Part shown: in pieces, positions 3,083-64,000 of the stretch | Position numbering within the stretch: the stretch's first letter is position 1 | Layout: each line of letters opens with the position of its first letter | Assembly: GCA_964016885.1 (NCBI GenBank) | Contig: OZ024742.1 | Span: 179,366,001 to 179,430,000 of the forward strand | Source: Eledone cirrhosa | Lineage: Eukaryota | Length of the DNA stretch: 64,000 nucleotides | Direction of reading: 5' to 3' | Translations under genes and position numbers: made by a program | The notes under the pieces: generated by a model | Database searches by the model: none | Seen by the model: the letters and a program-made list of their open reading frames with translations, nothing else | Told to the model about the DNA's origin: nothing

Positions 3083-3118
3083 TCTTAACCTTTCGGACGC
3101 TAGTCCTTCATCAGAAGA
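3083..3118 (-). ncRNA. Minimal hammerhead motif (weak stem III)
   Basis: Reverse complement: tctt-CTGATGA-a-ggac(tagc)gtcc-GAAA-gg-TT-aaga. Confidence 0.55.
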
Positions 3119-6009: not shown

Positions 6010-6759
6010 ACATTCCGATTCATATGTCTATAGCATTAATCTGTTCTATGAAGTGTTATTTTGCAGTTAGTTATTTGCAATAAGCCGATTTTAAATATCC
6101 CAGAAAAGCCCTATGTCAACACGGACCTCCAATGACTCCCCCAGCAGTTAAATTATAGAGAGGCGGAATAATCTATAATAGAGAGAGGGGAGAGCGATGG
6201 AGAGAGTAAAGCTAAGAAACTATAGGGAGTTGTGTAAAACAGTGTTGTCATATAGAGAGTGAAGAGCGACAGAGAGAGTAAAACAGTATTATTATAGAGA
6301 GGGGAAATAATCTATTATAGAGAAAGGGAAGAGCGACGGGGAGAGTAAAGCTAAGAAACAACAGGGAGGTGTGTTAAACATCAAAGCATGAAGAGAGTAA
6401 AGCAGTTAAATTATAGAGAGAGGGAAGAGCGACGGAGAGAACGTTATGACTATGTTTGTTGTATAAAATGATGTGTTGCTTAGTTTTCAAAGATTATGTC
6501 GCGTTCCTGAACGAAGTTTTGTCGCTGTTGGGTAGTAGAGAGAGTGAATAAGCGTGTAAGAGAGAGGGTTACAGCATATATTTAGTTTTATCGATTTTTT
6601 TTCATAGAAGCAGGAAATCTTTGGCAAAGTTTATTACGAGTCGACCATCCTTGGTAAATTTGGAGCACATTGGAAAAAAATAATCAAAATTGGTAGAGAA
6701 ATGTGGAAATCCATAAAAATCATACACACACACATACACACACAGACATACATCTTCCG

Positions 6760-9010: not shown

Positions 9011-11570
9011 ATGAGGCAATCATAGTGTTCCATCGCGTTCGGTCAGCAGCCAGTTGCACAGCGTCCCGCCATTGTCTGTTTGTCGCTCGCAGGTCCCTCT
9101 CAACTGTCTGGCACCAGTTCATATTGGGTCGCCCTCTCCGTCTGCTTCCCTGCGGGCTCCATTTAAGTACTTGGTTCGCTAGTCTCTCCGGGGGAAGTCT
9201 CAAAGCGTGTCCAAACCAGCCCAGGCGTCGCTTGCAGATGGTAGAAGAGACTAGCTGCTGGTTGGTGCGGTTCCTGACTTCTTGGTTTGTTACATGGTCA
9301 CTCCATTTAATTCCCAGGATCTTTCGCAGTCACATGGAATCGAATGCGTCCAACTTCTTCTCTTGGCTGGTCTTAAGGTGCCATGTTTCACTTTCGTACA
9401 AGAGTGTGGACCGCACGTTGCTGTTGTAGAATCTCATCTTTGTTTTGAGGGGGAATTTCCTGCTCTTCCAGATCTTGTCAAGCTGGTTAAATGCTGCTGA
9501 AGCCTTTCCCATTCTACATTGCAGTTCACTGTCCATGGTGCCCTCATTGTTAATGGAGCTTCCTTGGTAGGTGAAGTTGTCCACTATCTCCACCTCCCCC
9601 TGTTCAATGAAGACACTAGTTGGTGATGGGTGTGTCCCAGATAACATGCTTTTGGTCTTCTCGGCACTGATATTGAGACCTAAGCTTCCTGCTTCGACAT
9701 TGCTATTGTTAACAATGATTTGCAGGTCAGCTGTGCTCTCTGCAAGTGCAGCAATATCGTCCGCAAAGTCCAGGTCAGACAACTTTTGCTCTCCCACCCA
9801 AGATATTCCCTGGTCTTTAGACGTTCTTCTTAATACCCAGTCAATGGCTATGGCAAAGAGAATTGGAGAGAGCGAGCAACCTTGACGCACGCCAGTAACC
9901 ATCTCAAACCAGTGACTGTAACCATCCTCTGTCCGTATGCAGCACTTGGAGTTTGTGTAAATCTGTTTGATAGCCGAAATGACTTTCTGCGGCAGACCAT
10001 ACTCATGCATGATGCTCCAGAGTGACGTCGATGAATGCTATCGAATGCTTTGGAGAAATAGATGAAGCTGATGACGAGGGGCCTCTGGAATTCGTTGTAC
10101 CTCTCAATGATGCGGCGTAGCGTAAAGATCTGCTCTGCACAGCAACGTTTTGGTCGGAACCCTGCTTGTTGTTCTCGCAGTTCCCGGTCTACCATGCCAC
10201 GTATGCGGTTCAGGATCACCAGACAATAGACCTTCCCTGGTATGGAGAGAAGCGTCACTCCCCTCCAGTTGTCACAATCGGCAAGGTTGCCCTTCTTGGG
10301 GATACAGACAACTGCTCCGTTTCTCCAGTCTTCTGGGACTTCACCCGTGTTCCACACAAGATTACATAAGTGGCCCATCCACTTGACCATGCTTTCGCCT
10401 CCTGACTTCAGCATTTCAGCAGAAATGCTATCCATACCTGGTGACTTGTTATTCTTAAGGGTTTTGATGGCCATGCTGACTTCCTTCTCGGTGAAGTCAT
10501 CAGTATTGATAGGTAACAAACTAGTAGGTTCCTTAGTGTCTGCTGGCATACGTGGCTCCGATCGGTTGAGGACTTCCTTGAAATGTTCAGCCCATCTGAC
10601 TAACTTTTCTTCACCCTTGGAAAGCAGAGTACCATCTTTCGCTTTCACCGGGCCTGAGTTAGCTCTAGAGCTGCCGGTGATTTTCTTGGCAATTTGGTAC
10701 ACAGAGCGCATGTCATTGCGTGCCGCAGCTGCTTCTGCCTCCTCTGCCTTACTCTCAAGCCACATTCGTGTGTCCTTTTGGGCGCTGCGTTTCACCTCCT
10801 TGTCCTTCTAAACATACTGCTGATATACTTTGATGGCCGCTGGGTTAGTGGCATGCCTCTGCTAGTGTAGGGCTTTCCTTTCATTAATCAGCTGCCAGGT
10901 GTTGTCGCTGACCCAAGCTTCTCTGAGGGACTTCCTGTAGCCCAGGATTTCTTTCCCTGCAGCTTCCATGGTCTTATTCATTTCCTCCCACCAATTGACC
11001 GAGCCTGGTGCAGACTCCTCAAGGACAGCAAATCTGTTCCTCAAAGCAGCCTCGAACCGTTCTTCAGCTTGGTAGTGTCAAAACGCCTTGTAGTGGGTGC
11101 TTTCTTCTTCTGCTTCCTCAGTCTGATTTTAACTTTGGTAACAGACAGATCGTAGTCACTGCAGACATCTGCGCCTCGGTAGACTCGGACGTCCTGCAGG
11201 CAAGGAGTTCTCAATCTTGGGCCAATTGCGTCTTGGTCCTGTGGTCGTTCGAAGCCCATGTGACCTTGTGGATGTTCTTGTGGTCAAATAGTGACGAGCC
11301 GATTTTCATATTGTTCATGGCACAGAACTGGACAAACCTGTCCCCGTTGTCCGTGCGGTTTCCATAAGCATGGGGGCCAAGGCCATATTCAAAGCCAACC
11401 CTGCTTCCCCCGATCTGTGCGTTCATGTCTCCCATGATGATCAGGATGTCATGACGTGGGGTTTTATTGACAACATCTGGTAGTTGCTGGTAGAAAGCGT
11501 CCTTGTCATCGTCGTTATGTTCGTTGGTTGGAGCATAGCACTGAGCTATGGTGACCTTTGCATGTGATGG
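9010..11570 (-). mobile_element. RTE-clade LINE fragment (APE endonuclease + RT), decayed
   Basis: QCYAPTN, MGDMNAQIG, KKGNLADCDNWRGVTLLS, QAGFR, GVRQGCSLSPILF, DLDFADDI, RRRGRP; stops and frameshifts. Confidence 0.93.
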
Positions 11571-12445
11571 AACCTGGGAGTACACAATTGTTTGCGCAAA
11601 TGTATCGAACTGGCAAAGTTTGAAGAAACCCGATCTTTCGGATCGGTGGTCAACTTGGCGGCGGTTTGGTCCGTAAAGTAAACCCTTTGTCCATTTTCCA
11701 AATGTACCGCAAGCTGTACGATGGCGGGGTGACGTTGGTGTAGGGGTAAACCAAATAGGCGCCAAAAAGCTACATTGCTACTGATGTACCGCGTGCCAGG
11801 TATTCTGTGACCTCGTCCCTGCTATTTTCAGCTTGAAATGCGAACATTGTGGCATCAGTGCCCTTATTTACATATATGCATATGTATTTTATCGACTTGA
11901 CGGAGTTGCACAACTCAACGTAGATGTGGGCGTTGAACATCTTCAAGAGAAGCGGGGCAGTAAGGGACCACCCATCTATTGTCGACTTGACTTCCCTTTA
12001 CTGTTGTGGTGAAGCCACCGTTCTCGGGCCGTCTCCGCCTGTACAGGGGGTACCCGTCGCCACCAGTCTGAGTCTGGTCAACAAATTTTTAGGGCTATCC
12101 ATTATTGCACGACCCCCCTTTCAGACACGCATGATGCTCATTAGGACCCGACGCACACGGACCATGAATCATCTTACCTTTGACGATGTCATGTAATTCC
12201 TGGTCAGTTGCTGGGTTAGGGATTTCAGCCGAAATGAAGCTGTCTATGGCATTTGAATTGATTTTATCAGCTAACCAAATCAAAATGTGAGCATGTGGCA
12301 GTTTTCGTTTTTGCTATTCGACGGTGAACATGTCACATTTTACAGCCCCAAATACCTGACCTTTTTGATTAAAGCCATGAGTTTAGCCAGTTTCAGTCTC
12401 AACACTCTAGCAATGAGGTCATGTCTGTTCGAATAATTTTGCCTA
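11570..12445 (-). pseudogene. Helitron Rep (HUH endonuclease) remnant
   Basis: Minus-strand translation includes LPHAHILIWL, IDSFISAEIPNP, MIHGPC, FNAHIYVELCNSVKSIKYICIYVNKGTD, YSQVP. Confidence 0.88.
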
Positions 12446-20029: not shown

Positions 20030-21290
20030 GAATGTCAATCCAGTTACAGATCAGATGTGATTTCAGGTGTGGACAACATCTGAAGATCTCGGTCTTGGAG
20101 TTCAGGCAGGTTGAAGTGGCTTTCAAGTTTTGTAAAATCCTAAATTTTTCAGTGGTACACAAAGAACAATTCTTTGTGCCCCTTTGGTACTCCCTCGAGT
20201 GGTCTTAAATAGATCAGTTGATAGAGTGCGAGATGTTTTTATCCTTGAATTCCCACACCTTATTTGCGAGAGCCGTTGCAGTTCTTTTATCGGAGTGTTT
20301 AAAAGAAGCGACATGTGCATAAAACCTGGTTTTAAACCTGTCCTGAGTCATGCCAACATATCGTTAACTGCTGGCTGGCTGGTTGTTAATTAAAGGTGTT
20401 GATTAAATCTTTACGGAATTTATCAAGGTTATGGCAGTTGGTGGTATGAGAAACTGCCAATCCGTCGTCACGGTATAAACCGATATTATGGGAAGGAAAT
20501 TTCTCTTTAAGGGTGTGGAGAAGGAATAATCCTACTAAGTCACACACATCCGCACGGTCATATGAACCCATTGCAACATCAAAAGAGTTTTCAGGGTTTG
20601 ACTTTTTAACCCAAATACTTTCATTAGTAAAGAGTAGAGTTTTTCTAGCATGAAAGATAATGTCTTCTTCTAATTTAGAAATATTAATGAAGGGTCTTGC
20701 AAAATCTAAGGCTTTAGTTAATAAGGAAACAGTAATAGAGGGTTAAAAATCAACAATATCAAATTGGGTAAATCTACACTTATTTTTACCTTGTATATTA
20801 TTAAACCAAGAAATAACAGAGAATGTATTTAACCATTGTGATAAGTCAGTCTTAGTTCTAATTTGGAGAATTATTTTTCTTAAGATTCTTTTACTTGCAA
20901 GGCCAACTTCGGATTTAGCCGGGTTAATCAGTCTACAACTAGGTCGATTAGTAAAGTCTAATTTATGGTCTTTAAGGGTAATATATTCTTTACATTTAGC
21001 TAGGCTTTCAATCCGGTTGACTATTTTTAAAGAACTAGCTAGTTCTTTAGCTTCTTTATTAATAGTATTGTAGGTGTTATTATTAGTTAATTGATATTTG
21101 TTGGTGATACTATTAGTTAAAAGTTGGTTATACAAAATACTATTATCTTCAAAGCGATTTTTAGTTTTATTGGAAAGAACAAAAGTGTTTGTAGAATTTT
21201 TAAAATGAGAAATATCGTTAGACAGTTTAGTTTGAAAATTATTATTGTACTTACAAAATTTGATATCACTAATTAAATTAACAAGGTCTA
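20030..21290 (-). pseudogene. Penelope-like element RT/GIY-YIG, inverted copy with internal deletion
   Basis: YITLKDHK..CRLINPAKSEVG, QFDIVDF, MGSYDRADVCDLVG, GLYRDDGL; lacks the equivalent of about 22040-22595. Confidence 0.9.
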
Positions 21291-21309
21291 ATTCCCCAAC
21301 AAATATCAA

Positions 21310-22977
21310 TTAACTAATAATAACACCTACAATGCTATTAATAAGAAGCTAAATACTATTAATAAAGAAGCTAAATTAATAAAGAAGCTAAAGAACTAGC
21401 TAGTTCTTTAAAAATAGACAACCGGTTTGAAAGCCTAGCTAAACTTAAAGGATATATTACCCTTAAAGACCATAAATTAGACTTTACTAATCGACCTAGT
21501 TGTAGACTGATTAACCCGGCTGAATCCGAAGTTGACCTTGCAAGTAAAAAAATCTTAAGAAAAATAATTCTCCAAATTAGAACTAAGACTGACTTATCAC
21601 AATGGTTAAATACATCCTCTGTTATTTCTTGGTTTAATAATATACAAGGTAAAAATAAGTGTAGATTTACCCAATTTGATATTGTTGATTTTTACCTCTC
21701 TATTACTGTTTCCTTATTAACTAAAGCCTTAGATTTTGCAAGACCCTTCATTAATATTTCTAAATTAGAAGAAGACATTACCTTTCATGCTAGAAAAACT
21801 CTACTCTTTACTAATGAAAGTATTTGGGTTAAAAATCAAACCCTGAAAACTCTTTTGATGCTGCAATGGATTCATATGACCGTGCGGATGTGTGTGACTT
21901 AGTAGGATTATTCCTTCTCCACACCCTTAAAGAGAAATTTCCTTCCCATAATATCGGTTTATACCGTGACGACGGATTGGCAGTTTCTCATACCACCAAC
22001 GGACATAACCTTGATAAATTTCGTAAAGATTTAATCAATACTCTTTCTAGTCTTAACCTTAAAATTACTATAGATACGAACCTTACCAATGCTAACTTTC
22101 TTGACATTAATCTGGATCAACTTACTGCCTCTTTTAAACCTTATCATAAACCTAACGAAAATCTTGGATATATACACAAAGAGTCTTGCCATCCCCTATA
22201 GTTTTTAAAAATTTTATTCCCAACATTAGCCGTAGGATTTCTAGCTTATCTTCGTTTCTAGACATTTTTAACAAAGCCGCTCCTTATTATAATAAAACCC
22301 TTAATAACAGCGGATTTACAGAACACATTAATAATTTACCTACTGTCAAAACTAATGTAGGAAGGAAATTCCTTGACCTCTTAGACAAACATTTTCCTCC
22401 TAATCATAGATATCATAAGATATTTAATAGAAATGTAGTTAAAATCAGTTACTCTTACTGCCCATCAATGAGTTCTAAAGTCACCAATTCTAATCGTACG
22501 AGAATAAATCCAGGATGCAGTTGCAGGAAGCCGGATGAATGCCCATTGCAGGGCAAATGTAACACCAAATCCGTTGTATATGAGGCCAAAGTGACACCTT
22601 TAATTAACAACCAGCCAGCCAGCAGTGAACGATATGTTGGCATGACTCAGGACAGGTTTAAAACCAGGTTTTATGCACATGTCGCTTCTTTTAAACACTC
22701 CGATAAAAGAACAGCAACGGCTCTCGCAAATAAGGTGTGGGAATTCAAGGATAAAAACATCACGTACTCTATCGATTGGTCTATTTTAGACCATTCGTGG
22801 GAGTACCAAAGGGGCACAAAGAATTGTTCTTTGTGTACCACTGAAAAATTTAGGATTTTACAAAACTTGAAAGCCACTTCAACTTGCCTGAACTCCAAGA
22901 CCGAGATCTTCAGATGTTGTCCTCACCTGAAATCACATCTGATCTGTAACTGGATTGACATTCCTACGATGACTTAA
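21310..22977 (+). pseudogene. Penelope-like element RT + C-terminal GIY-YIG, 5'-truncated (possibly Hydra-type; clade is inference)
   Basis: GLYRDDGL, NFLDINL, CSCRKPDECPLQGKC, VVYEAKV..YVGMT, CSLCTTEK, CCPH; frameshifts. Confidence 0.92.
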
Positions 22978-24055: not shown

Positions 24056-24121
24056 TATTTCATTATACATATTTCAAGGGCCACCAGAGCAAACTATGGT
24101 GCGCTTTCATCAGATAAAATA
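24056..24121 (-). ncRNA. Type I hammerhead motif (family shared with 27363-27427, 27546-27610, 44233-44297)
   Basis: Reverse complement: tattttat-CTGATGA-aagcgcacca...tggtggccctt-GAAA-tatgta-TA-atgaa. Confidence 0.7.
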
Positions 24122-25536: not shown

Positions 25537-25870
25537 TTAATTGTAAGTTGTGATGTTGCTGTTCCACTCATATTTTCTATTTAATTTTGGTTGTAATTCT
25601 TTTATGTTTATTGCCTCTGTAATTTGTCTAAACATTGCGTCTTTTCTGTGTGTAGATTCTATTTTTATTTCTATGTTCTCTAATTTACCCTTGTGTTCTA
25701 TTTTAGCATGTTGGTAGAGTACAGATGATTCTTTACTATCTTGAAGGTCTCGCCAGTGTTCATTTATCCGTTCCCCTACACTACGAGCTGTCTCACCTAT
25801 GTACACTATATTTTTGTCTCTACATTGTCCTTCAGTACATCTTATGCTATACACTACATTTCTAGTTTTA
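25537..25870 (-). pseudogene. Penelope-like GIY-YIG endonuclease C-terminal fragment
   Basis: YSIRC..C...IVYIGETARSVGERINEH, RQITEAINI..PKLNRKYEW. Confidence 0.85.
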
Positions 25871-26030
25871 CAGTTAATATGGGGGCTTATTTTACAGGTT
25901 ATACATTTCTTATCTATACATGCGGGTCTTTGAAAAGGGTATGGCGATATGCAAATTAGGCTGCTCAGCCGTTAATATGCATAAGGAAAGTATATACTTT
26001 CAGACGTTCAACCATCTGGCAGGAAGGTAT

Positions 26031-36433: not shown

Positions 36434-36507
36434 TGCTACTGTACGTCTGTATACATATATGTATGTACGTATACATACATACTTACATATATAGATATAG
36501 ATATATA

Positions 36508-37312
36508 CAAAAAGTTATGAAACGAAAGGAGCTGGGTGGTTACTAAAAACAAGGTTTAGGATGGTGGTTAGGACGGAACAGGAGGAGAAAGGAATTTCCA
36601 TCTTCAGCTGTAAATGTATCCCGAACCGATGTTTCGGCGCTGAATTACAGGACATCGGTGTAGTTCGGGTGTGCCTGAGGCCTTTTATTGATCAAAAGGC
36701 CAGGTGGAAAAGAAGAGAGAAAAAAGGAGAGAGAAAAGGAAAGAGAGGAAAAGGAGGAAGAACAGGGGGGAAAAGATGAGGAGAGAAGAAGAAGGGGGAA
36801 AATAGGAAAGGAATAGAAGAAAAAAAAGTGTACAGATCCCATCGTGGGAAGACACAGGTGAAAGAAACATGCAAAAAAGTAACCGTGGAAAAATAGGGAA
36901 AGTAAGTTGTGGCCAACCTGGGAGACTTTAGCCTGGTGGTCAGCTACCACTCAGAGCTTGTATAATCGTGCTGCCTCTCGCATAGACAGGAGCAAGTGAG
37001 AGAGAGACACGGGCAACAAAAAGTGAGGAGGCGAAGGGAAAGGGAGATAATCCACGACGGTGGTTAAAACGTGCCGCAAAGATTGCGGACAGAGAGGCCA
37101 GTATGGCACGTGTAAACATGTCAACAATCAAAACCGAACGAACGGATAGAGAGAGAGAGGGAGAGAGAAAAAAAACGAGAATGAGGAGGAGAAGGGAAGA
37201 GAGAAGGGAGGGTCGATGCGAAAGTGTGGAGGGTACACAGATCGACCAAAGCAGGTAGGGTCACAGCGGTAAATAAAAAAAGTTATGAAACGAAAGGAGC
37301 TGTGTGGTTACT
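36508..37312 (-). mobile_element. Non-coding Penelope-style repeat with short terminal direct repeats; second copy 47650-48217 (+)
   Basis: aaaaagttatgaaacgaaaggagctg.gtggttact at both ends, flanked by (TA)n; no ORF. Confidence 0.7.
36598..36659 (-). ncRNA. Candidate non-circularly permuted hammerhead (family 1)
   Basis: Reverse complement: accgatg-TC-ctgtaa-ttcAGCGcc-GAAA-catcggt-tcgggatacat-ttacag-CTGAAGA-tgg. Confidence 0.7.
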
Positions 37313-37318
37313 ATATAT

Positions 37319-42148: not shown

Positions 42149-43690
42149 TATATATATACACATATATTTTTCTGTGTTGCACCATAGAGCATGTGTGTTT
42201 ACGTATGTCATTGTGTTTATATGTGGGTGGAGATGTGTGCTGATGTAGGTATGTATGTTAACGTGTGTATGTTGTGGGTTCGTCTTAGGGAGAAGTGTTT
42301 AGACGGGGTCCGTATTTGTTAATGAAGTAAGATTCCTTGCTGATGCGCTGGGTGTGGGTGGCATTATCTTTAAATTTGTAGAGGGGAAAGATTCTGAAGT
42401 TGGGATGATTTTGGGCGGCACAGGTGTCAATGTGTTCACTCAGTGGTATTTTCCTGTATTCCCGTATTTTAATTTGGGATCTATGGACAGTCATGCGTTG
42501 GCGGAGGCTGGTATTTGGTCTGGCCTATGTATTGTTCTCGACAACCTGAGCAAGTTAATACATATATTAGATTTTCCGATGCACATGTGAAATTGTGTTT
42601 TACTATAAAACGTTGTCCATCTTTGAAATAGAATTCCGAACCCTCTATTAGGTTGATGCAAATGCCACAGTTGGGTCTATCGCATTTTTTTACTGTGGGT
42701 TTCGTTGTTGTGGTTGGCAGTACTTTGGCATGTGTTAGGATGTTTTTCATTGACTTGGATTGTCTTTTGCTCTTTATGATATCGTGTGTTCGTAGAATTT
42801 GGTTCATTCTATGGTCCTTTTTCAACACAGGGATGTTCTGGAGGATGGTGTCAAAGGCCTCATTGTTGAGAGGGTTGTGTGTGGAGATGTATGGAAGAGC
42901 TTTTAGTTTCGGTTGATTTACTTTAGGGTGTCTAAGGTCTTGGGTACTGAGTTTTAGGGCACGTTGGATTCCATTGTCAATTAGTGATGCAGGGTAGTCC
43001 CTGCCTATGAGTGTGTCCTTTAGTTCTTGTAGCCGTATGTAGCAGATGTTTTTATTGGAGACTATAGTACAGATTCTCTTGGCTAAGTTGTAGGGAATAT
43101 TAATTTTAACGTGTCTAGGGTGGCAAGAGTTGAAGGGGAGATATTGCTTGGAGTCTGTGGGCTTGTAGTATATGTCTGTTTCTATTTTTTTGTTATGGAT
43201 CTTAATGAGGATGTCGAGGAAGGGGAGTTGTTGATGGCTGTATTCCATCGTGAAGTTAATATTTGTGTTGAGCCCATTTGTAAGGGTGTGAAATTCTTTA
43301 AGTTTTTCGATGTTTTCGTGCCAAAGGATGAAGCAGTCATCTAGATATCGCTTCCAGTTCCTTTCAATTTTACATTCACATGACCTCTACCGACCAATCA
43401 AAATTGTTTTGACCACAAGAATTTTTGCAACACCAAAGTAACGCTGGAGCCACTTTTTTAACATAAAAACAGGTAGAATTCCCAAAACTAATCAGATCAG
43501 AGCAAACAACACGGACACTCTATCTCAAAATTATTTTTGAAAAGCATTTAGAAATGCGCAACCGGTAAAAACTTAAAAACTTAAAACCACAACTGAATAC
43601 TAACCCATACAATCACTAATACTCTTTTATTCCTAATTAAACCATTTTTCAACTGTGAACAATTTGTCAGCATTTTCTATTCCGTTTACC
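40990..43690 (-). mobile_element. Penelope-like (Neptune-type, inferred) 5'-truncated insertion with inverted pseudo-LTR
   Basis: 42285-43370 encodes WKRYLDDCFILW, LPFLDI, YYKPTDSKQYL.FNSCHP, LIYVLTCSGCREQYIGQT. 40990-41320 is the inverted copy of 43370-43690; both carry TTGAAAA..GCAA-ccgg-TA (decayed HHR). Confidence 0.9.
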
Positions 43691-44699: not shown

Positions 44700-47222
44700 T
44701 TTATCTGCAGCCTATATTGGTTGACCACTGGTGGGAGTTTGTTGCTGCTGCCCTTAGGTTTCCCTTGTGCCTTGCTGTGGGCTCATCTGGTATCCTAGAT
44801 AGCAAGGTGTCGAGATGTTTCTTGAAGACATCCACCTCCACACAATGCAAATCTCTCAGATCCCTCGGCAGCTTGTTGAAGAGTTGAGGGCCCTTGAATC
44901 CCAGGCTATTGTAATATCTGCTCCTTATTCTAGATGTGGAAGACGGGACCTTTGGCATCACACAGTGACGTCCTGTTCGACGGTTGGTCCAGCCCCCAAT
45001 GCCAAAGTTTGGTGCTAGTCCCTCCAGGATTTTCCGCATGTAGATCACTGTGTATCTCTCCCGTCTACATTCCAAGGAGTAGAGTTTCAGTTCTTTTAGC
45101 CTCTCCCAGTAGCTTATCTCCTTCATTGTGGTAATCCTCTTGGTGTAGCTTCGCTGGATTGCCTCGAGCTCCGTGGTTAGTTTGACACTATGGGGTGACC
45201 ACAACTGGGAGCAATAGTCCTGGCGGCTTAGGACAAATGTCCTCCCTCCATAGTGTCAACATGGTGTCTCGGTCTCTTGTCCGGAAAGTCCTCAAGATCC
45301 ATCCAGCTAGTCGTCTGCACATTGTCGCCACTTTCATGATGTGTGAGGAAAAAGATGCATCATCGCTCAGGTTTATATCCAGGTCTCGTATCGATTTTGA
45401 CACGGGGATATCGGTCCCTCCTGGTCCTGCGTAACTGCGTGTATTGTAGGGTTTGGAATTTTCCAGCATTAAACAGCATGTTGTTTTCTTCCGCCCATTT
45501 GTATATGGTATCCAGATCTTGTTGTAAAAGGGCAGCGTCAGTCGGGTTTTTGATTGCCTGTACTACCTTAGTGTCATCGGCATAGCTAGTGAGGGATGTT
45601 ATTGTATGTCCTACAGAGGGCATGTCTGAGAGAGCCACCAAAAACAGTAGTGGTCCCAGGACTGTTCCTTGGGGCACCCGACTTGTTATTAGTGTTTCCT
45701 TTGAGAGGACCCCGTTTGCTGCGACTGTCTGGCTTCTGTCCTTTAGGAAGTCATGCAGTCACTCACCTACTTTTCCAATTAAGCCGAGTCCGTGTAGTTT
45801 GTGACATATTATTCCGTGGTCGACATTGTCAAAGGCCTTCGCAAAGTCAAGGTATATCACGTCCACATGTGAGCTGTCAAGCAGTTGTTTCAGTACCCAG
45901 TCGTAGTGATGTAGCAGCTGTGTAAGGCAGCTTGTTCCTGGGTGGAAGCCATGCTGCGTGCTAGTCAGGCGGTCATTTTCCTCGAGGAAAGTGATCAATT
46001 TCTTTCTGACGACTCGCTCCAAGACCTAACTTATATGCGATGTCAGGGAGACTGGCCTATTGGTTTTGGCCTCCGCTCTGCTACCTCCTTTATGGATAGG
46101 GCATATTGTGCCTTCTTTCAGCTCCCTGGGTAGTATACCGCTAGCCAAGGAGCTTCTGAAGAGCATCTTCAGTGGAGTTGCTAAGGCACGCTTACATGTT
46201 TTTAAGAGGGCTGCTGGGAATCCATCAGGTCCAGCAGCTGAGTCTGTTCTAATTTCATCTAGGGCGTACACCACATCCTCCTCCGTTATGTCCATGTGGT
46301 TGATGGTCGCCATTTCTTCGTGTAGTGTTGTGGCATCAAATAATTCCCCTGGCTTTGTTATTTGCATGTGCCTCAATGGACATGTGAACACACTTTTGTA
46401 CTGTTCGTTCAGTATTTCACTTATCTCTTGGGGATTCTCGGTTAATGAACCGTCTGTATGGAAGAGTGGGCCAATCTTGCAGTGTACCGAGGCAGTTTCT
46501 TTTGCAAATTTAAAGAAGGCCTTAGGGTTTCTTTTAATATTTTCTATGGCCCTGCTTTCTTTCGTTGCCCTCTCATTTTCATGGGAAAGTTTGAGTGCAA
46601 TCTCGGTGCCGAGTAGTGCAAGTTTCAAATAGGATTTCTTCTTGTTTTTGTTTTCTTGTTGTGCATTTAACTGGTTTGAGAGCTTGGTTCTACGTCTCAT
46701 AAGGTTTTTCCTATCTCTGGGAATAAGATTTTTGTGTCTGTTTGCCTTTTTCTCCGGGACAAACTTCTTGCATATAGTGTGTATCGTTGTCATGAAGTGT
46801 TGTGTGTTGGTGTCTTGTGTGGCGGTGTTTTCGCTCCATGTTTGCTTCCGGATTTCTCTCTTGATCTTCTTCCAGTTAGCCTTGTAGAAGTTAAAGCTGG
46901 ATAACGTCCCGGTGCTTCTTATGGTTTTGTCTCTGTTGGTTCTCTCGGACCACATATCATTAGTTTCTACTAAGTTATGATCCGAGAAAATTGTTGGTGT
47001 TACCTTTACATTGTGGACGAGCACTTCGTTGTTTGTAAAACAGAGGTCCAGGGATTTTCGCCTCTTGTTGGGAGGAGTATTGCTTGGTCCATGAACAGCC
47101 TGTGTGTGAGGGCCAACAGGGATTCCTTCTGTCTTTGTTCTATTGACGTCATTCCAGGGAGGAAGTGGCCCTCAGGCCATTTGACCTTTGACAGGTTGAA
47201 GTCTCCCAGCAGTAGAATGTTG
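44700..47222 (-). mobile_element. CR1/L2-group LINE fragment (APE end + RT), decayed
   Basis: FSDHNL, AAGPDG, PIHKGG..NRPVSLTS, QHGF, VIYLDFAKAFD, PQGTVLGPLLF, YADDTK, YWERLKELKLYSLE.RRER. Confidence 0.92.
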
Positions 47223-47477: not shown

Positions 47478-48058
47478 CTAAGGCGGGTAAAATTCCCGAG
47501 ATCCATGGACGAGTTCTCTCCAGCGGTCTCTGTCCCTCATTATCGCTGCCATGTTCTGCGTCTCCAACAGACCAGTGTCTGTCCTTAGGGCATCAACATA
47601 CGTTAACCTTGGTCTTCCTCTTCTAGTGTGTCCCTTCTCCCCCCCCCCCACACTTTTGGTTGCCCGTGTCTCTCTCTCACTTTCTCCTGTCTATGTGAGA
47701 GGCAGCACGATTATACAAGCTCTGAGTCGTAGCTGACCACTAGGCTAAAGTCCCCCAGGTTGGCCACAACTTACTTTCCCTATTTTCCACGGTTACTATT
47801 TTGCATGTTTCTTTCACCTGTCTTCCCACGATGGGACCTGTACACTTTTTTTCTCCTATTCCTTTACTATTTTTTCCCATTTTCCCATTTTCCCTTCCCC
47901 CTTCTTCCTCTCTCCTCATCTTTTCCCCCCTGTTATTCCTCCTTTCCCTCTCTTTCCTTTTCTCTCTCCTTTTTTTCCCCTTTTTTCTCTCTCTCTTTCT
48001 CTCTCCTTTTCCACCTGGCCTTTTGATTAATAAAAGGCCTCGGGCGTACCCGAAATAT

Positions 48059-48120
48059 ACCGATGTCCTGTAATTCAGCGCCGAAACATCGGTTCGGGAA
48101 ACATTTACAGCTGACGATGG
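48059..48120 (+). ncRNA. Candidate non-circularly permuted hammerhead (family 1)
   Basis: accgatg-TC-ctgtaa-ttcAGCGcc-GAAA-catcggt-tcgggaaacat-ttacag-CTGACGA-tgg; stem III accgatg/catcggt, stem I ttacag/ctgtaa. Confidence 0.72.
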
Positions 48121-48276
48121 AAGCTCCTTTCTTCCTTTCTCCTTCTGTTCCGTCCTAACCACCATCCTAAACCTTGTTTTTAGTAACCACACAGCTCCTT
48201 TCGTTTCATAACTTTTTATATAAGAAAAATGGAGTGCTGCGTGGTTGCACATGGGTTACATATGAATATAATTAGT

Positions 48277-48335
48277 CCTTCATCAGTGATCTTCCAGCCT
48301 TCATTGGTATTTCATCGCTTTAAAAATCATATACC
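48277..48335 (-). ncRNA. Candidate non-circularly permuted hammerhead (family 2)
   Basis: Reverse complement: ggta-TA-tgattttt-aaAGCGat-GAAA-tacc-aatgaaggctg-gaagatca-CTGATGA-agg; stem III ggta/tacc, stem I gaagatca/tgattttt. Confidence 0.68.
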
Positions 48336-48791
48336 TCTGGTTGGTGCGAGCAATAACTAAATACAGTTATTGGAACAAGTAAAATAAGGGTGAAGCGAGC
48401 GAGATATGTAAACAAACAAAGAAGGTATTGCAACGGAAAGATAGGAGGAGACAAGTACATGATATCTATAAGCTTAAGCTTGGTGAAATCATGGACGAGA
48501 GATACAGACCATCCGACATGGGTGAGATGTGAGCGAGAAAAGGATTTCACACAAGTCAAACGGGAGGAAGTGAGAGAGGGAAGAAGCAGAGAGTGGGTGA
48601 GTGGAAGTGTGAGGAAGAGGCCAGCTGAGAGAGAGTGTGACTGGCAGAGGGGGTAAAAATATGGTGAGAGATACAGAGAGAGGGGAAGCAGTAAGAAGGA
48701 AACAGACAATCGCAGCTGAGGAAAAAACATAAATATAAGAAAAATGGAGTGCTGCTTGGTTGCACATGGGTTACATATGAATAAAATTAGT

Positions 48792-48850
48792 CCTTCATCA
48801 GTGATCTTCCAACCTTCATTGGTATTTCATCGCTTTAAAAATCATATACC
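48792..48850 (-). ncRNA. Candidate non-circularly permuted hammerhead (family 2, second copy)
   Basis: Same as 48277-48335 except one linker base; 515 nt apart. Confidence 0.68.
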
Positions 48851-51800
48851 TCTGGTTGGTGCGAGCAATAACTAAATACACTTATTGGGACAAGTAAAAT
48901 AGGGTGAAGCGAGCGAGATATATACATATATATATATACATATATATATACCAGATAGAAAAATGCGTACAGCAAAAAAAAGTAATATTGCTGGAATATA
49001 AACCTTTAAAAATACAGGACAAGAAACTAAAATAAAACTTTAAAAGAATAGGACAAGAAACTAAGGTAAAACTTTAAAGAATTGGACAAGAAATAAAAAA
49101 ATTTACAATAATTGCTAGTGGCAACATTTTTATTGGTAAAAAATCGAGTTCCACATTCATGGGCTCTGGGTTCCACATTCAGAGGTCGTCGTCAGACCGG
49201 GAGGATCATTTGATCCTGGTTTGAACACCAATTGGGCCATAACCATACCCCTATTTCATCATTCGGCGACACGCCTCATGTGTCATGCATAATGTGAATG
49301 GACCCATGGCCCCATGAGCACAGATCTTGAGCAGCAGCGGACGGTCTTGTCGTCCCGCTCATCCTTGATCTTGACCAACTCGTCCATCTTCTCCTTGCAT
49401 CTTGTCCTTGAGTTCAAGTCCGGCAGTCCAGATGAATGCGTGCCACAGCTTTCTGGTACAGGAAGGGGGAGCAGGATGACTGGAGGGATGACGGGACAGA
49501 GGGAGGGAGGACCGATGGTTGAGGGAGGTGCCGTAGTCGGTGGTCAGAGTCGACATCTTGTCCCGGTCGTCTTCTCCATCTTCGTCTGGTGTTGCGGGAC
49601 CAGAAGTGCATTCTTGGAGGAGACCTGCAGCTGCATCGGCCAATTCTTCTTGCAATGGTCATTCTGACGGAGCAGAACTGCTCAGCCAACCAACCCCAAC
49701 CAGAACCAACCGCTCAGGGGCAACGCACAATGAGAGCATGACAATTATTATGCACTAATCAAGAAGATACAAGCAACAACTATCTAATAATTAAATGAAC
49801 ATAGTGAATTACTGACAAGTGATTGACATTTTAAAGTTCTTTTGAGTATAATTGCAATCTAGTTGAGGCAACTGGCTTAATGACAAAGCTAGTAAATCAT
49901 GAATGCATTTGAGATGATTAGTGCATAATAGTGAATTGGTGAAACTTGTGCATCTCAATGGTGTTACAACAATAGATGTAAGTTATATCGTAGTAATACT
50001 TTATCATTTTAACTTTTTAGAATGGACAAAAACCCATGCAAAGAAATGACTTTGACTGCAGTGATTCTCTCCAATTTACTTACAAAGCAAACGTCATTTC
50101 TGGATTACCTCCCCTAGCGTCACGCTTACTACTCACTCACTTGAACACAAGATTTATCAGCAAACTTTGATTATAAACTTTTTCCCGCTGGACCAAATTT
50201 CTAGATTTTTAAGCCAAAAGATGCTCATATAAGTTTTATCTCAGTTAAATAAAGTAGAGCCGCGCTGTACTGTCGTAAACAGACGATTGCCAACGAAAAC
50301 ACGACCACAACAATATTACTAAACGGACTACCGTCCGTTTAGGATATATTTATATTTACCGTCCGTTTAGGATATATTTATATTTATACTCGGAATTTTT
50401 TCATAGAGTGCTTAAAATTATTTGTGAAGGATGAGTATTTAAACTTTATTTTTATTCAGAGTTAAGGCTCTATTGATTTTTTGCTGAATTTCACAAAATT
50501 CTATGGATAAATCTATATCTTGATTTTTTTAAAATTGAGTTTGAATTATTTTCCCACATCTTACGTTAATTATTTTCCATTTTGACGTTATAGTCACTTA
50601 TATATTACTGTTGAAATACTGTTGGATCCTTGCTCACAATAATTTCTATACTTTCATTTATATATATATAGGGAATGTAACGTCCAGTTACTGTAGGTTC
50701 ACCAGAGTGAGCACCCGATGCGTAGTTTCCAGTCGGTATAGAGGTGTAGAACTAAGCAGAGTGTAATAATAATAATTGTTTCTACTTTTGGCACAAGGCC
50801 AGCAATTACCTAGTGCATTACTGGTACTTTATTTTATCGACCCCGTAAGGATGAAAGGCAAAGTTAACCTCGGCGGGATTTGAACTCAGACTGGCAAGGG
50901 CCGTAACTCTATGCGTCAAAGCATGGCGTCCGAACCAGGACGATTTGCTATGTCTTCATTACGCTTATTGAGTAGTGACAGTGTTCGATCTGTATTGATC
51001 TAGCCTCAACTCTGGAATCAAACGATCGTCGGACCTCTGCTGTGGTAATGACAGATTGAACCTTTAGAGCGTAGAGAGGTCTATAATGATTCACATTAAT
51101 TTATGGTGATCAGTTAATGTTCGTTATGATTGGTGGTTTTGCTATAAGGAATGTTTTGGTATGTATGATAAGTGGGGGAAGGATTATAATGAAGAATTGG
51201 TGGTGGTTGGCGATGGTAGGTGTGAGTTACGGGGGTGTGGTGTTTTAGCTGCTTCATAGACATTATGGCGTGTATGTGGTGAGGCGAAGGTGCTGTGTGT
51301 GCGTGTGGAGGTGGTTATGAGATATACGTGATGGGAGATGAAAGAGTGTGGTGCTGTACTAATGGGGGGGGGGGTGTCAAAGAAGAATAAAAGAAAATAA
51401 ATAAAAGTAAATTAAACCTGGGTTAAGGATGAAGCGTTATAGACCTTTCTACGCACTACAGGCTCGTTCTGTGATTACCACAGTAGAGGTCCGACGAGCC
51501 TTTAATTCCAGAATCGGGCTAGACCGATACAGATCGAACCTTGAGCTGATCAATAGCGAAACGCGCATCACTACTCAATAAACGTAATGAAGACATAACA
51601 AATTGTCCTTTTTATTATCATTTGGATTGGCAGTATCGGTAGAAGGCCGGACGCCATGCTTTGACGCATAGAGTTACTGTCCTTTATGATCTGAGCTCAA
51701 ATCTCGCCGAGGTTAACTTTGCCTTTCATCCTTACGGGGTCGATAAAATAAAGTACCAGTCATGCACTGGGGTCGATTTAATCGACTTTCCCCTCCCCCA

Positions 51801-51899: not shown

Positions 51900-53875
51900 T
51901 CATTTATCTTGGTTTATGTTCATACGAGTTATCTCCAAGTCACAACCAGTGAAGGTCCGCCATGTTCAAGAAAGAACACATACACACATACATATATCTT
52001 TAGGTGTTTAGACCTGTGATGTATTTATATTGAGAGAATCTTCCTTAGTATATGGGCAGTTCCCATTAGTACTATCTTTTGTATTTCTTCTATACGCGGG
52101 TTTCCTGGGATTTGGGATAAGTAATCATTAGACCCCTTTGGTATCATTCCTGAGCGCCTACAACCCCTGGTATTGTTTTAGTTCTCAACTTCCACATTTT
52201 TCCAATTTCTAACTCCAGGTTTTTATACTTGCTCAATTTTTCAAATGTTTTATAGATACATTCTTGTCTATTGGAACAGACATATCAATTAGCAGGCATA
52301 CCCTCTTTTTAAAGTCCTTCAGTATTATATCAGGTCTATTTGCATTTATTTTTCGGTCTGTTTGGATGCTAAAGTTCCACAAGATGAGATGTGATCTTTT
52401 TCAAGTACAGGAGGTGGTTGATGCTCCACCAATTCTTTTGATGTGGCAGGTCAAAATGTTTTCACATTATCCAATGTATGTATTGTGCAGCTCTGTCGTG
52501 CCTGTTTAGGTATTCTGTTGGAGCTATAGGACTGCACATTGAAATTATATGATCAATGGTCTCTGGTTGTTTTTTTTACATACACGGCATAATGGGTTGC
52601 ATCCATTTTTTATTATGTTGGCTTGATAATTTTTTGTTGGCAGCCACCGATCTTGTGCTTATATAATCAGTCCTCCAGTCTCCAATTTCAGTCCAGAGGA
52701 TGCCAACCACTGATGGGTTAAAGTTTTGTCAACATCAGGATTATTAGCTTTTTCTGGGTATTTTCCATACAGAGGCTTTTCTTGCCATTTCTTAGCCAGT
52801 TTCTGTAGCAGTTCTTTCTTTGCAGTTACTTTTATCTGCTTTGCTTTTTCTGTGTTTTTCATTTCAGCAGTAAAGGGAACTTCTGAAATTTGTAGTCCAT
52901 TACTGTATCTTTGTGCATCTTTTGTAATGGAATATGATCTTTTGATGCTTTCATGTTTCAAAACGAGTTTGATCATCCAATCATGTGCCTCCCTTAGATA
53001 TGTAGATAATCCAATTGTTGCAGTTTTCAAATCAATATCTAACTGGAATAATCCACGTCCTCCTTCTTTCCTAGGGAGATATATTCTATCTGTATCTGCC
53101 TTAGGGTGATGCATTCTGTGCATGGTTAAAAATTTTCTAATTTTTGTATCGAGCCTACGGATCTCAGTGCTTGACCAATTGATGACATTGAAACTGTAGG
53201 TTACTACTGGTATGGCAAGCGTGTTTATGGCATCGATCATATTCCTTGCATTCAACTCCGTTCTTAAGATTGCTCTTACTCTGCGGTAATATTCCTTTCT
53301 TATCCTTTCCCTCATTGTCAAGTGCTTGATTCCGTCTCCTTCACAAATACCTAGATATTTGTAAGTTTCCTCTTGATCAAGTTCTCTTATCACATTCCCC
53401 CGATCAAGATTAATGTCTGAACTTCTCAGCAGCTTTCCTCTGGTGAACGTTGCTTTGGCGCATTTATCTAGTCCAAACTCCATTTTAATATCATCACTGA
53501 ACTGCTTCACAGTGGATAATAGCCCTTGCAATTGTTCATCATTTTATGCAAATAGTTTCAGGTCATTCATGTAGAACAAATGATTAATGGTTTTGTCATA
53601 GACTTTATATCCATGTTTTGTTTCATTGAGCCTTTTACTTAATGGTATAAGTGCGATGCAGAATAAAAGCGTTGATAAAGACTCATTCTGAAAAATTCCA
53701 CAATTAATATTAACTTCTTCAGCTTCCAGTGAATTTTTTTCACTATTCAAAAGGTGTGTTGTTTTCTATGTTTTCATACTGAATGATAGGTACCTCCTGA
53801 CAACGGGAGATATTTTGAAAATCTCTAAACACTTTTCAATCCAACTGTGTGGCAAACTATCGAATACTTTTTTGT
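51900..53875 (-). mobile_element. R4/Dong-like LINE (RT + restriction-like endonuclease), 5'-truncated
   Basis: HLFYMNDLKLFA, FGLDKCAK, YKYLG, LPRKEGGRGL; C-terminal NRPDII..LIDMSVP..KLSKYKNLE..MWKL; (TAA)n at both junctions. Confidence 0.9.
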
Positions 53876-60652: not shown

Positions 60653-63187
60653 CGGCTGGAAATTATCTCCCCTTGGCCGACTGGAAATTATCTCACCTTG
60701 GCCGGCTGGAAATTATCTCCCCTTGGTCGGCTGGAAATTATCTCCCCTTGGCCGGCTGGAAATTATCTCCCCTTGGCCGTTTGGAAATTGTCTCCCCTTG
60801 GCCGGCTGGAAATTATCTCCCCTTGGCCGGTTGGAAATTATCTCCACGTGGCCGGTTGGAAATTATCTCCCCTTGGCAGGCTGGAAATTATCTCCCCTAA
60901 ATTAAATTAAATTAAATTAAATTAAATTACATTAAATTAAATTAAATTAAATTAAATTAAATTGAAATAAAATGAATTAACATAATTAATTAATTAATTA
61001 ATAAAGTAATTAATAAAAAAAAATAAAAATAAATAAAATAAGAAAAATATAATTAATTAATTAATTAAATAATTAATTTAATTAATTTGATTTGATTTAA
61101 TTTAATTTAATTTAATTTAATTTAATTTAATTTAATTTAATTTAATTCAATTTAATTTAAAAAACGAAACGAAACCGGGGTACCTAAAAAAAACAAATGG
61201 AGAGAAACCGGGGAACCTAAAAAATCAAACGAAACGAAATTATCTCCCCTTGGCCGACTGCAAATTATCTTCCCTTGGCCGGCTGGAAATTATCTTCCCT
61301 TGGCCGGCTGGAAATTATCTCGCTTTGGCCGGCCGGAAATTATCTCCCCTTGGCCGGCTGGAAGTTATCTCCCCTTGGCCGGCTGGAAATTATCTCCCCG
61401 TGGCCGGTTGGAAATTATCTCCCCTTGGCCAGCTGGAAATTATATCCCCTTGGCCGGCTGGAAATTATCTCCCCTAAATTAAATTAAATTAAATTAAATT
61501 AAATTAAATTAAAATAAACTAAATTAAATTAAATTAAATTAAATTAAATTAAATTAAATTAAACTAAATTAAATTAAATTAAATTAAATTAAATTAAATT
61601 AAATTAAATTAAATTAAATTAAATTAAATTAAATTAAATTAAATTAAATTAAATTAAATTAAATTAAATTAAATTAAATTAAATTAAATTAAATTAAATT
61701 AAATTAAATTAAATTAAATTAAATTAAATTAAATTAAATTAAATTAAATTAAATTAAATTAAATTAAATTAAATTAAATTAAATTAAATTAAATTAAATT
61801 AAATTAAATTAAATTAAATTAAATTAAATTAAATTAAATTAAATTAAATTAAATTAAATTAAATTAAATTAAATTAAATTAAATTAAATTAAATTAAATT
61901 AAATTAAATTAAATTAAATTAAATTAAATTAAATTAAATTAAATTAAATTAAATTAAATTAAATTAAATTAAATTAAATTAAATTAAATTAAATTAAATT
62001 AAATTAAATTAAATTAAATTAAATTAAATTAAATTAAATTAAATTAAATTAAATTAAATTAAATTAAATTAAATTAAATTAAATTAAATTAAATTAAATT
62101 AAATTAAATTAAATTAAATTAAATTAAATTAAATTAAATTAAATTAAATTAAATTAAATTAAATTAAATTAAATTAAATTAAATTAAATTAAATTAAATT
62201 AAATTAAATTAAATTAAATTAAATTAAATTAAATTAAATTAAATTAAATTAAATTAAATTAAATTAAATTAAATTAAATTAAATTAAATTAAATTAAATT
62301 AAATTAAATTAAATTAAATTCAATTCAATTCAATTCAATTCAATTCAATTCAATTCAATTACATTACATTACATTACATTACATTACATTACATTACATT
62401 ACATTAAATTAATTAAATTAAATTAAATTAAATTAAATTAAATTAAATTAAATTAAATTAAATTAAATTAAATTAAATTAAATTAAATTAAATTAAATTA
62501 AATATTTAATTAATTAATTAATTATATTTTTTTATTTTATTTTTTTATTTTTTATTAATTACTTTATTAATTAATTAATTATCTTAGTTCATTTTATTTC
62601 AATTTAATTTAATTCAATTTAATTTAATTTAATTTAATTTAATTTAATTTTATTTTATTTTATTTTATTTTATTTTATTTTATTTTATTTTATTTTATTT
62701 TATTTTATTTTATTTTAGTTAAAAAACGAAACCGGGGTAGCTAAAAAAACAAAAGTAAAGAAAACCGGTAACCTAAAAAATCAAACGAAACGAAATTATC
62801 TCCCCTGGGCCGGCTGGAAATTATCTCCCCTTGGCCGGCTGGGTATTATCTCCTCTTTGCCGGCTGGAAATTATCTCCCCTTGGCCGGCTGGATAGTATC
62901 TCCCCTTGGCCGGCTGGAAGTTATCTCCCCTTGGCCGGCTGGAAAATATCTCCCCTTGGCCGGCTGGAAAATATCTCCCCTTGGCCGGCTGGAAATTATC
63001 TCCCCTTGGACGGCTGGAAAATATCTCCCCTTGGCCGACTGGAAATTATCTCCCCTTGGCCGGCTGGAAATTATCTCCCCTTGGCCGGCTGGAAATTATC
63101 TCCCTTTGGCCGTCTGGAAATTGTCTCCTCTTGGCCGGCTGGAAATTATCTCGCTTTCGCCGGCTGGAAATTATCTCCATTTGGCCG
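60653..63187. repeat. Composite satellite: 25-bp unit arrays interleaved with (TTAAA)n/(TTTAA)n
   Basis: ggccggctggaaattatctcccctt arrays at about 60653-60898, 61238-61474 and 62793-63187; about 1 kb of (TTAAA)n at 61475-62500. Confidence 0.95.
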
Positions 63188-64000
63188 GGGCACCCAAATA
63201 AAAAACGGGGCACCCAAATAAAAAACGGAACCCCCCATAAAAAAACGGGACACCCAAATAAAGAACGGGGCACCCAAATAAAAAACGGGGCACCCAAATA
63301 AAAAACGGTCCCCCCCAAATAAAAAACGGGGCACCCAAATAAAAAAACGGACCCCCCCATAAAAAACTGGAAACCCAAATAAGAAACGGACCGCCCCATA
63401 AAAAACGGTGCACCCAAATAAAAATTGCACCCCCCATAAAAAAGGGGCACCCAAATTAAAAAAAGGACCGCCCCATTAAAAAAACGGGTCACCCAAATAA
63501 AAAACGGACCCCTACATAAAAAAACGGGGCACCTAAATAAAAAACGGACCCCCCCATAAAATAACGGGGCACCCAAATAAAAAACGGGTCACCCAAATAA
63601 AAAGCGGAGCCCCCCCCCCATAAAAAAACGGGGCACCCAAATAAAAAACGGACCCCCATAAAAAACGGAGCACCCAAATAAAAAACGGCGCACCAAAATA
63701 ACAAACGGACCCCCCCCATAAAAAACGGTGCACCCAAATAAAAAATGGACCCCCCCATAAAAAAACGGGGCACGGAAATGAAAAACGGACCCCCCCCCAT
63801 AAAAAAATGGGGCACCCAAATAAAAAACGGCCCCCCTCATAAAAAAAACGGTGCACCCAAATAAAAAATGGACGCCCCATAAAAAAACGGGACACCCAAA
63901 TAAAGAACGGACCCCCCATAAAAAAACGGGGCACCCAAATAAAAACCGGACCCCCCCATAAAAAAACTGGGCACCCAAATAAAGAACGGGGCACCCAAAT
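63187..64000. repeat. 20-21 bp minisatellite/satellite, running off the window end
   Basis: Alternating ggggcacccaaataaaaaac and ggacccccccataaaaaaac variants. Confidence 0.95.

Follow-up and report, generated by a model that had tools for sequence, protein, structure and literature searches.

The window analysed here (64,000 nt of the 3.0-Gb, microsatellite-rich genome of an animal, Eledone cirrhosa) carries hammerhead folds in a scrambled, type-SGC strand order, borne by two families (A and B) of non-coding repeats that end at (TA)n. We consider it probable that stem II of these hammerheads is made mainly by the 5' flank, the AGCG motif common to both families being likely an ordinary paired strand of this stem, and that the chain likely enters and leaves the core at the A9/10.1 corner. 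With confidence only a little better than even we also favor a broader reading, namely that this would be a hammerhead topology occurring in nature beyond the six block orders and the ribozyme so far missing from Naiad retroelements, from ctenophores and corals to cephalopods, with a type-CSG sister in nematode and spider Naiads, and self-cleaving in more than 15,000 copies of the present genome.

Both families consist of tandem non-coding units with one hammerhead per unit (Table 1). The spacing of the units is 746-787 nt in A, 509-516 nt in B, ~630-760 nt in other B subfamilies and 426 nt in a further family, D, which carries UGCGAA. First-look candidates in the genome numbered 894 for A, 1,578 for B and 2,551 for D. 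Families D and E are homologous to B (B-D identity 69-81%), while blastn matches between the A and B monomers are CT-rich only and their tails share, by eye, a short motif. The copies of A, B and D are young (92-98% identity), and a TA run directly follows 25 of 30 A copies, 26 of 30 B copies and 42 of 45 D copies. By eye, the repeats of the window look like published cephalopod elements. Within the family B element of the window, a 172-nt direct repeat with a spacing of 515 nt holds two ribozymes at the same distance; the further family A copy has one mismatch in the flank strand of stem II. Elsewhere in the genome, at loci L094 and L095 (C1 ~43.92 Mb and ~25.33 Mb), the B3 subfamily is repeated in tandem at least 8-9 times with units of ~720-800 nt, and loci L002, L038, L042, L076, L358 and L407 show short inverted copies with head-to-head joins near the ribozyme, an arrangement described for Penelope-like insertions.

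Table 1. Features of the two repeat families in the window (positions and strand refer to the 64,000-nt stretch; cut sites and P4 are predicted).
Feature	Position	Strand	Basis
Family A: further copy, core CUGAAGA, predicted cut after 36651	36502..37313	-	blastn, sequence
Family A: element, 5'-truncated copy of ~750-790 nt non-coding monomer, (TA)n end	47645..48221	+	blastn to tandem copy
A: 5' flank strand of predicted closing helix P4 (AAAGG + CC; partners 48126-30, 48119-20)	48033..48039	+	
A: 5' flank strand pairing GCGCC into stem II, one G-U in window copy	48043..48047	+	95.3% of cells paired
A: P3b 5' strand (48049-53), 5-nt bulge, proximal stem III (48059-65), U16.1	48049..48066	+	sequence; both helices in centroid fold
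A: predicted cut after C17 (48067), stem I 5' strand	48067..48073	+	sequence, analogy to type SGC
A: AGCGCC (stem II strand 11.6-11.1; AGCG 48077-80), GAAA (48083-86)	48077..48086	+	sequence
A: stem III 3' (48087-93), P3b 3' (48094-98, part of the "11-nt linker"), stem I 3' (48105-10)	48087..48110	+	
A: CUGACGA core, UGG	48111..48120	+	sequence
Short TA run where A and B 3' ends meet; shared target, no functional pair	48213..48221		
Family B: element, one 515-nt monomer and ribozyme-bearing end of preceding unit	48218..48918	-	blastn
B: CUGAUGA-AGG (48286-77): CUGAUGA (48286-80), A10.1 (48279, pairs U11.1), then GG-A-CUAA tail strand of predicted P4	48272..48286	-	
B: stem III 3' (48309-06), bulged kink-turn strand (48305-00), P3b 3' (48299-94; one A-C mismatch in window copy), stem I 3' (48293-87)	48287..48309	-	
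B: AGCGAU (stem II strand), GAAA (48313-10)	48310..48319	-	sequence
B: P3b 5' (48344-39), kink-turn AGA (48338-36), stem III 5' (48335-31)	48323..48344	-	double changes in P3b, P3a, P1
B: predicted cut after A17 (48330), stem I 5' strand (48329-23)	within 48323..48344	-	
B: 5' flank strands UCGC (48349-46, pairs GCGA) and UUAGUU (48360-55, P4)	48346..48360	-	4/4 flank pairs in 67/77 copies
B: second ribozyme, P3b intact, predicted cut after 48845	48787..48875	-	sequence

The elements expected of a hammerhead core, CUGANGA, GAAA and a UH site with the U16.1-A15.1 pair, are present in the motifs of both families, with stems I and III flanking the site. In B, stems I and III contain 4 and 1 pairs with double changes, respectively; in A, they are 92-94% paired with no double change, and the stems of A and B are wholly different in sequence. 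The blocks run in the order S-G-C, which is none of the canonical CGS, GSC and SCG orders; neither family belongs to type I, and Rfam at gathering score gave no match anywhere in the window. Restoration of the canonical order in tandem or circular RNA was considered and rejected, as rotations of SGC give only GCS and CSG. The pattern AGCG-NN-GAAA-N18-34-CUGANGA-NGG matched the 3-Gb genome 9,842 times, versus 7 matches for the reversed-pattern control. When metagenomes were scanned with the AGCG-NN-GAAA...CUGANGA-NGG pattern, 115 matches were obtained and 0 of the 115 had stems I and III, as expected by chance; thus the genome matches are not a property of the pattern itself.

An earlier note on this DNA had placed AGCG 2 nt ahead of GAAA and 9-10 nt past the cleavage site in both families, and this is indeed what the sequence contains (9 nt in A, 10 nt in B). 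NGG after CUGANGA, taken there as a shared signature, is present in both families of the window, but is not fixed, since family E has G-GA at this place. The tail-to-tail arrangement of the two elements at the TA run, given as about 160 nt, is correct as geometry (the cores end 162 nt apart, facing the run near 48217), but not as a feature: of the 60 loci compared (30 A, 30 B), it is seen at the locus of the window alone, so a functional A-B pair was discarded. The convergence is that of two insertions at one microsatellite by chance, A and B meeting tail to tail because both families end at (TA)n.

The central proposal of the same note was that AGCG replaces stem-loop II as a new tertiary element, stabilising a nearly stem-II-less core and so defining a distinct hammerhead subclass. 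The subclass is unusual indeed, but its cause is a different one. The strand order is that of published type SGC, and therefore there is no loop II for AGCG to replace. Besides, the motif itself is not fixed: the pattern with any base other than A at the first AGCG position gave 7,938 further matches (114 in the control), mostly UGCG, and of the first 100 listed, 87 belonged to the B clade (almost all UGCG) and 13 to a family of canonical type I. Abundant families of the same order lack AGCG (UGCGAA in D, UGCGAC in E, UGCGAU in B4, GGGGUC in the old family C), an outcome which the earlier note had itself named as refuting its proposal, and AGCG is absent from all 13 readable tails of published Naiads described below. 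AGCG-N is likely a Watson-Crick strand of stem II, judging from its complementarity to the 5' flank outside the span considered in the earlier note. The strand 3' of CUGANGA can form only 2 bp with the strand before GAAA in A, 1 bp in B and 0 in C, and to that extent a stem II of at most 1-2 bp was described correctly; its near absence was not, as the partner strand likely lies in the 5' flank. In both families CGC occurs just outside that span, 1 nt before the second helix, and the complementarity of each stem II strand to its own flank is GGCGC/GCGCC in A and UCGC/GCGA in B.

A helix of at least 4 bp with the own flank was found in 96% of 26 A1 copies, 85% of 27 A2-4 copies, 100% of 53 B copies and 96% of 26 D copies, as compared with 34-44% in control windows (37% for the A1 comparison). 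In nine decayed copies of family C the flank helix was no better than in controls (67% vs 65%), and in a cross-family matrix the six-mers of C and D scored higher on the flanks of other families than on their own. Within the B clade, the flank pairs all of 11.2-11.5 in 67 of 77 distinct copies with intact flank, while the pair 10.1-11.1 is made by the base right after CUGANGA in 72 of the 77 and by the flank in 3, being A-U, G-U, U-A or G-C depending on the subfamily. Since 11.1 pairs with the base after CUGANGA, the N of NGG is position 10.1 in the B clade and the GG is free to pair with the flank; the base opposite G there is C or U, with one-sided changes only. The flank-made stem II of B showed no double change within the 49 of 55 copies aligned. 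The family A alignment (34 of 54 copies) was 91% paired, with no double change and with shuffles as good or better; the flank pairing in A thus rests on conservation and on the comparison between families, and for the two core-proximal pairs family A alone does not separate pairing with the flank from pairing of CC with the 3' GG. Alternative distal pairings of stem II with the 3' tail (AG/CU, AAAG/CUUU) were inspected by eye and rejected, being not kept across subfamilies.

Across lineages, the flank tracks the stem II strand. To the pairs of A and B are added GACCCC/GGGGUC in the majority of C copies, GACAC/GUGUC in locus L393 and in Octopus Naiads, GGCUCC/GGAGCC in Acropora Naiads, and GGCCCC/GGGGCC and GACGCC/GGCGUC in two other Naiad tails. 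Old same-order copies with other stem II strands occur at loci L392, L393, L396, L401, L404 and L405, and L393 and L404 have GGUGUC with a matching flank, as in Octopus Naiads. Families A, B, C, D and E, as well as 12 of the 13 readable Naiad tails, all have G at positions 11.3 and 11.5; such conservation may reflect a tertiary contact, which is the residue of the idea discussed above.

The stretch between stems III and I, which the earlier note had counted as an 11-nt linker, has this length if stems III and I are set at 7 and 6 bp in A and at 4 and 8 bp in B, but it is not unpaired. Its partner is the 5' flank, with which it lengthens stem III distally by a helix designated P3b; in the 49 of 55 B-clade copies aligned, P3b was 96.9% paired and had 2 double changes. 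Over the same alignment, the six-helix model had 96.6% of cells paired and 8 pairs with double changes, none of 500 shuffles scoring as high and slid controls reaching 29-47%, although these statistics are inflated by the related copies which the alignment takes in. The closing helix P4 was 93% paired in B, with one-sided changes only, and weak or ambiguous in D and E; in A, its CC/GG pairs were formed in 33 and 32 of 34 copies with no double change, the distal part being drawn by eye.

A kink-turn consists of a 3-nt bulge followed by tandem G-A/A-G pairs between the C and NC helices. The loop between P3b and stem III has a 3-nt bulge and tandem G-A/A-G pairs between two helices in 71 of 77 B-clade copies, in which the bulge position L1 and the 3b/3n pair vary while the tandem GA/GA is kept. 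This junction matches the kink-turn consensus, and a kinked geometry is predicted for it; family A1 differs in having a 5-nt bulge of another pattern. ViennaRNA recovered P3b and stem III in three of four window copies, with z-scores of -0.17 to -0.40, and never predicted the flank-made stem II; as the program handles no pseudoknots, such folding was set aside as uninformative for a pseudoknotted fold.

Among the closest known ribozymes is type SGC (HRIMA-1 and a variant), which is known from metatranscriptomes only, according to the parts consulted of Eckert et al. (2023, PMC10085705). Shared with it are the order site-GAAA-CUGANGA, a short linker between stems I and II, an extra base after CUGANGA and a fourth helix at a distance of 1 nt from stem II. 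The published SGC alignments regularly show CUGAUGA-U-G, so that CUGANGA-N-G has already been in print. In type SGC, however, the strand following CUGANGA forms the 5-bp stem II and the 3' flank takes part in helix 'I', while in the window form stem II comes from the 5' flank, which breaks Block C, and the linker pairs with the 5' flank too; the SGC alignments seen contain no AGCG, and the window form is present in ~10^4 genomic copies. Type CSG, represented by two metagenomic sequences in the same paper, has the same circle of strands, but it is opened after stem III, whereas the window ribozymes are opened between A9 and stem II and, unlike CSG, join stem III to helix 'I' on both strands via a kink or bulge. 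In the crystallised PK hammerhead, helix II is one pair plus a helix with a foreign strand, the core being unchanged (Zhan et al., 2024, PMC11300833, as far as consulted). Similarly, helix II of the B clade uses a foreign strand beyond 10.1-11.1, and an extra helix precedes helix I; the PK ribozyme differs in its canonical order, in taking the foreign strand from the loop of hairpin IV and in its A-minor triplex, as opposed to the 5' flank and SGC order here. For Penelope hammerheads, stem II has been described as starting with an unpaired base on its 5' side (PMC4209133, in part). Animal non-LTR retrozymes derive from Penelope-like ends and resemble A and B as non-coding tandem monomers (the latter within the retrozyme range of 51-972 bp) with one hammerhead per unit, but their hammerheads are of type I and often have a tiny stem III and work as dimers, in contrast to the long stem III and non-circular order of the window form (bioRxiv 10.64898/2026.07.22.740005 and PMC4209133, in the portions seen).

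Naiads are described as elements preferring (TA)n, with tandem and inverted copies and no canonical hammerhead; eight of them carry an 'HHR_half_core' whose other half lies 35-50 nt away 'on either side', and those of cephalopods are reported as remnants (Craig et al., 2021, PMC8557442, text and supplement seen in part). In that part, the half-core tails were not folded. We compared by eye 16 of the 54 consensus tails in the supplement, 13 of which were readable and three unreadable; the tails were located by CTGATGA only (60 of 62 places seen) and named from the following header and the order of the table, four headers being unseen. Eight of the 16 have the SGC order and a flank-made stem II of 5-6 bp, i.e., the split-core layout of A and B: two from Octopus, three near-identical ones from Acropora, and the entries in supplement parts 8, 12 and 19, of which the part-8 entry has a stem I of only 2 bp. 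The kink-turn pattern, too, is seen in the Octopus tails. In the Acropora and part-19 Naiads, the strand after CUGAUGA cannot pair with stem II and pairs with the flank by 8 and 5 bp around a hairpin, which, as drawn by eye, would produce a four-way junction at A9/10.1. The Euprymna tail has the SGC order with four of five flank pairs. Four more of the 16 tails fit, by eye, an intact type CSG with full stems I-III and helix 'I' (Nbra-3, Hpol, Smim and the part-15 entry); in this way type CSG, earlier known from two metagenomic sequences, would occur in nematode and spider Naiad tails. By eye, the 5' flank of B and D looks similar to the Octopus Naiad 3' UTR, and their ribozyme layout to the Octopus Naiad tails.

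Considering these data, we propose a topology in which the chain would run, 5' to 3', through P4', stem II', 1 nt, P3b', a bend, stem III', the UH cut, stem I' and 3-4 nt into the second half, that is stem II (AGCG-NN), GAAA, stem III, the bend, P3b, stem I, CUGANGA, (10.1) and P4. Type CSG, type SGC and the Naiad-like form of the window would then be one circle of strands opened at three places, here inside Block C, and P3b would correspond to helix 'I' of Eckert et al., which is likewise separated from stem II by 1 nt. Pair 10.1-11.1 would be made in B, D and E by the base following A9, and the next four pairs by the flank, as in the crystallised pseudoknot hammerhead, whereas in the coral and two other Naiad tails the flank would make all six pairs of stem II. 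The extended stem III is likely bent back to stem I, by a kink-turn in the B clade and the Octopus Naiads and by a bulge in A1. Entry of the chain at A9/10.1 is likely the very break which the SGC paper (PMC10085705, in the part seen) assumed impossible, CUGANGA and the stem II strand being regarded there as inseparable. Cleavage would require both flanks; RNA read through the tandem would be cut into unit monomers (515 nt for B), which may circularise and would be copied and reinserted at (TA)n by a Penelope-like reverse transcriptase/endonuclease, most likely of the Naiad type. This scheme for A and B monomers is modelled on proposals for retrozymes.

The 5' ends of truncated copies were compared with the predicted cut. 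Twenty-two B-clade copies had less than 45 nt of upstream homology, and six of these were set aside because of indels or subfamily differences. The remaining 16 end between -11 and +16 of the predicted cut, three of them at 0 or +1 (~1.7 expected) and none at +17 to +36; the ends thus lie near the cut with no sharp peak. In family A, such ends are confounded by subfamily differences.

The mobilising partner is the weakest step of the model, as the copies are young and only decayed Naiad-like reverse transcriptases were found. Naiads encode protein, whereas A and B encode none; an ORF with N-terminal GIY-YIG and C-terminal RT is absent from their non-coding monomers. In the PF01541 search, 150 of 10,596 candidates were scored, and in the 20 long-ORF loci examined every long GIY-YIG ORF has its endonuclease at the C-terminus; no A/B-type ribozyme is tied to these loci, and three B-type copies there look like separate insertions. 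The Naiad RT motif gave three genome matches versus three in the control, two of them decayed Naiad-like RTs with no readable ribozyme, so that an intact Naiad was not found among the genome matches to PF01541 and this motif. A pattern like the Octopus Naiad had one genome match, leading to the old family C. Two 3.66-kb inverted B pairs contained a Neptune-like endonuclease fragment and no Naiad. A CUGAAGA repeat, similar by eye to the Octopus Naiad tail in its upstream part but with no clear GAAA, was observed at 1443 (-) and 1905 (+) of the window and at 6686 (-) and 8210 (+) of locus L205.

The possibility that the fold is as modelled but its partner is not a Naiad, being for example an intact Neptune-like element, deserves serious though minority weight. 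The 92-98% identity of A, B and D copies contrasts with cephalopod Naiads, which are remnants in the published data seen and decayed here, and long-ORF elements with a C-terminal endonuclease are at hand; on the other hand, the flank of B and D looks, by eye, like the Octopus Naiad 3' UTR, old copies of this genome bear stem II strands like those of Ovul, and the 20 long-ORF loci have no such ribozyme of their own. As this alternative concerns the partner alone, it is compatible with the structural model. The three others concern the ribozyme itself. That AGCG is a sequence-specific tertiary element of a core with a 1-2 bp stem II is very unlikely: its occurrence in A and B despite monomers with CT-rich matches only, and the almost universal G at 11.3 and 11.5, would fit, but the thousands of matches without A, mostly B-clade where listed, and the exchange of the motif together with its flank in other lineages speak against it.

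An ordinary type SGC with a short stem II made by the 3' strand, the flank pairing being an inhibitory fold which keeps the monomer or circle from cutting, is unlikely. Two base pairs can indeed form with the 3' GG in A and the Octopus Naiads, A shows no covariation that would distinguish the two folds, and Eckert et al. mention, in the part of PMC10085705 consulted, a need to disable ribozymes. Yet in B, D and E the 3' strand can supply only 1 bp, at the very position where the flank is mismatched, the Acropora, part-12 and part-19 Naiad tails, as seen in the supplement, allow no 3'-strand stem II, and stem II is necessary for the published SGC ribozymes (Eckert et al., 2023, PMC10085705, in part). 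Quite unlikely is also a fold kept as a recognition element for a retroelement protein, with no cutting or with cutting only in the presence of the protein. Weak cutting of Penelope hammerheads in vitro (PMC4209133, as far as seen), eight of nine tested retrozyme dimers which did not cut according to the literature at hand, and the lack of a sharp peak of truncated 5' ends at the predicted cut are consistent with it; against this, families in which the stems turn over have all retained CUGANGA, GAAA, the U-A pair and a base other than G at the site. The split-core hammerhead with a flank-made stem II is the reading we favor.

In the openly accessible literature searched, animal genomes are not described as containing SGC or CSG hammerheads, Naiads are not described as having a permuted one, and no hammerhead with its core opened at A9/10.1 came to light; 'type-SGC' is used there only in PMC10085705, and non-circular hammerheads are known, in the sources seen, from environmental contigs and one bacterial candidate only. 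The split-core fold, predicted from sequence to self-cut, would also end several Naiads reported as having no normal hammerhead. The kink-turn offers an answer to the geometric puzzle of type SGC, i.e., how stem III is joined to the distant helix 'I', and a ribozyme which receives stem II from outside is a natural design for a switch.

Several other repeats of the window contain related motifs. Canonical-order (type I-like) CUGANGA-stem II-GAAA motifs, with no Rfam match at gathering score, are located at 3114 (-), 6943 (+), 18662 (+), 25331 (-), 37708 (-), 37994 (+), 54730 (-) and 58452 (-); loop II of the one at 3114 contains AGCG, and its core is followed by AGG. A further family with CUGAUGA, a long imperfect hairpin and GAAA is found at 24113 (-), 27419 (-), 27554 (+) and 44241 (+). 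ORF fragments at 42484-43386 (-), 20389-22974, 25540-25971 (-), 7525-8886 (-), 9333-11777 (-), 44704-47171 (-) and 52662-53543 (-) are presumably Penelope-like (RT/GIY-YIG), Helitron-like and LINE-like, these labels being motif-based. At the end of the window (60653-64000), tandem arrays with 25-nt and 5-nt units alternate and then give way to a 20/40-nt satellite.
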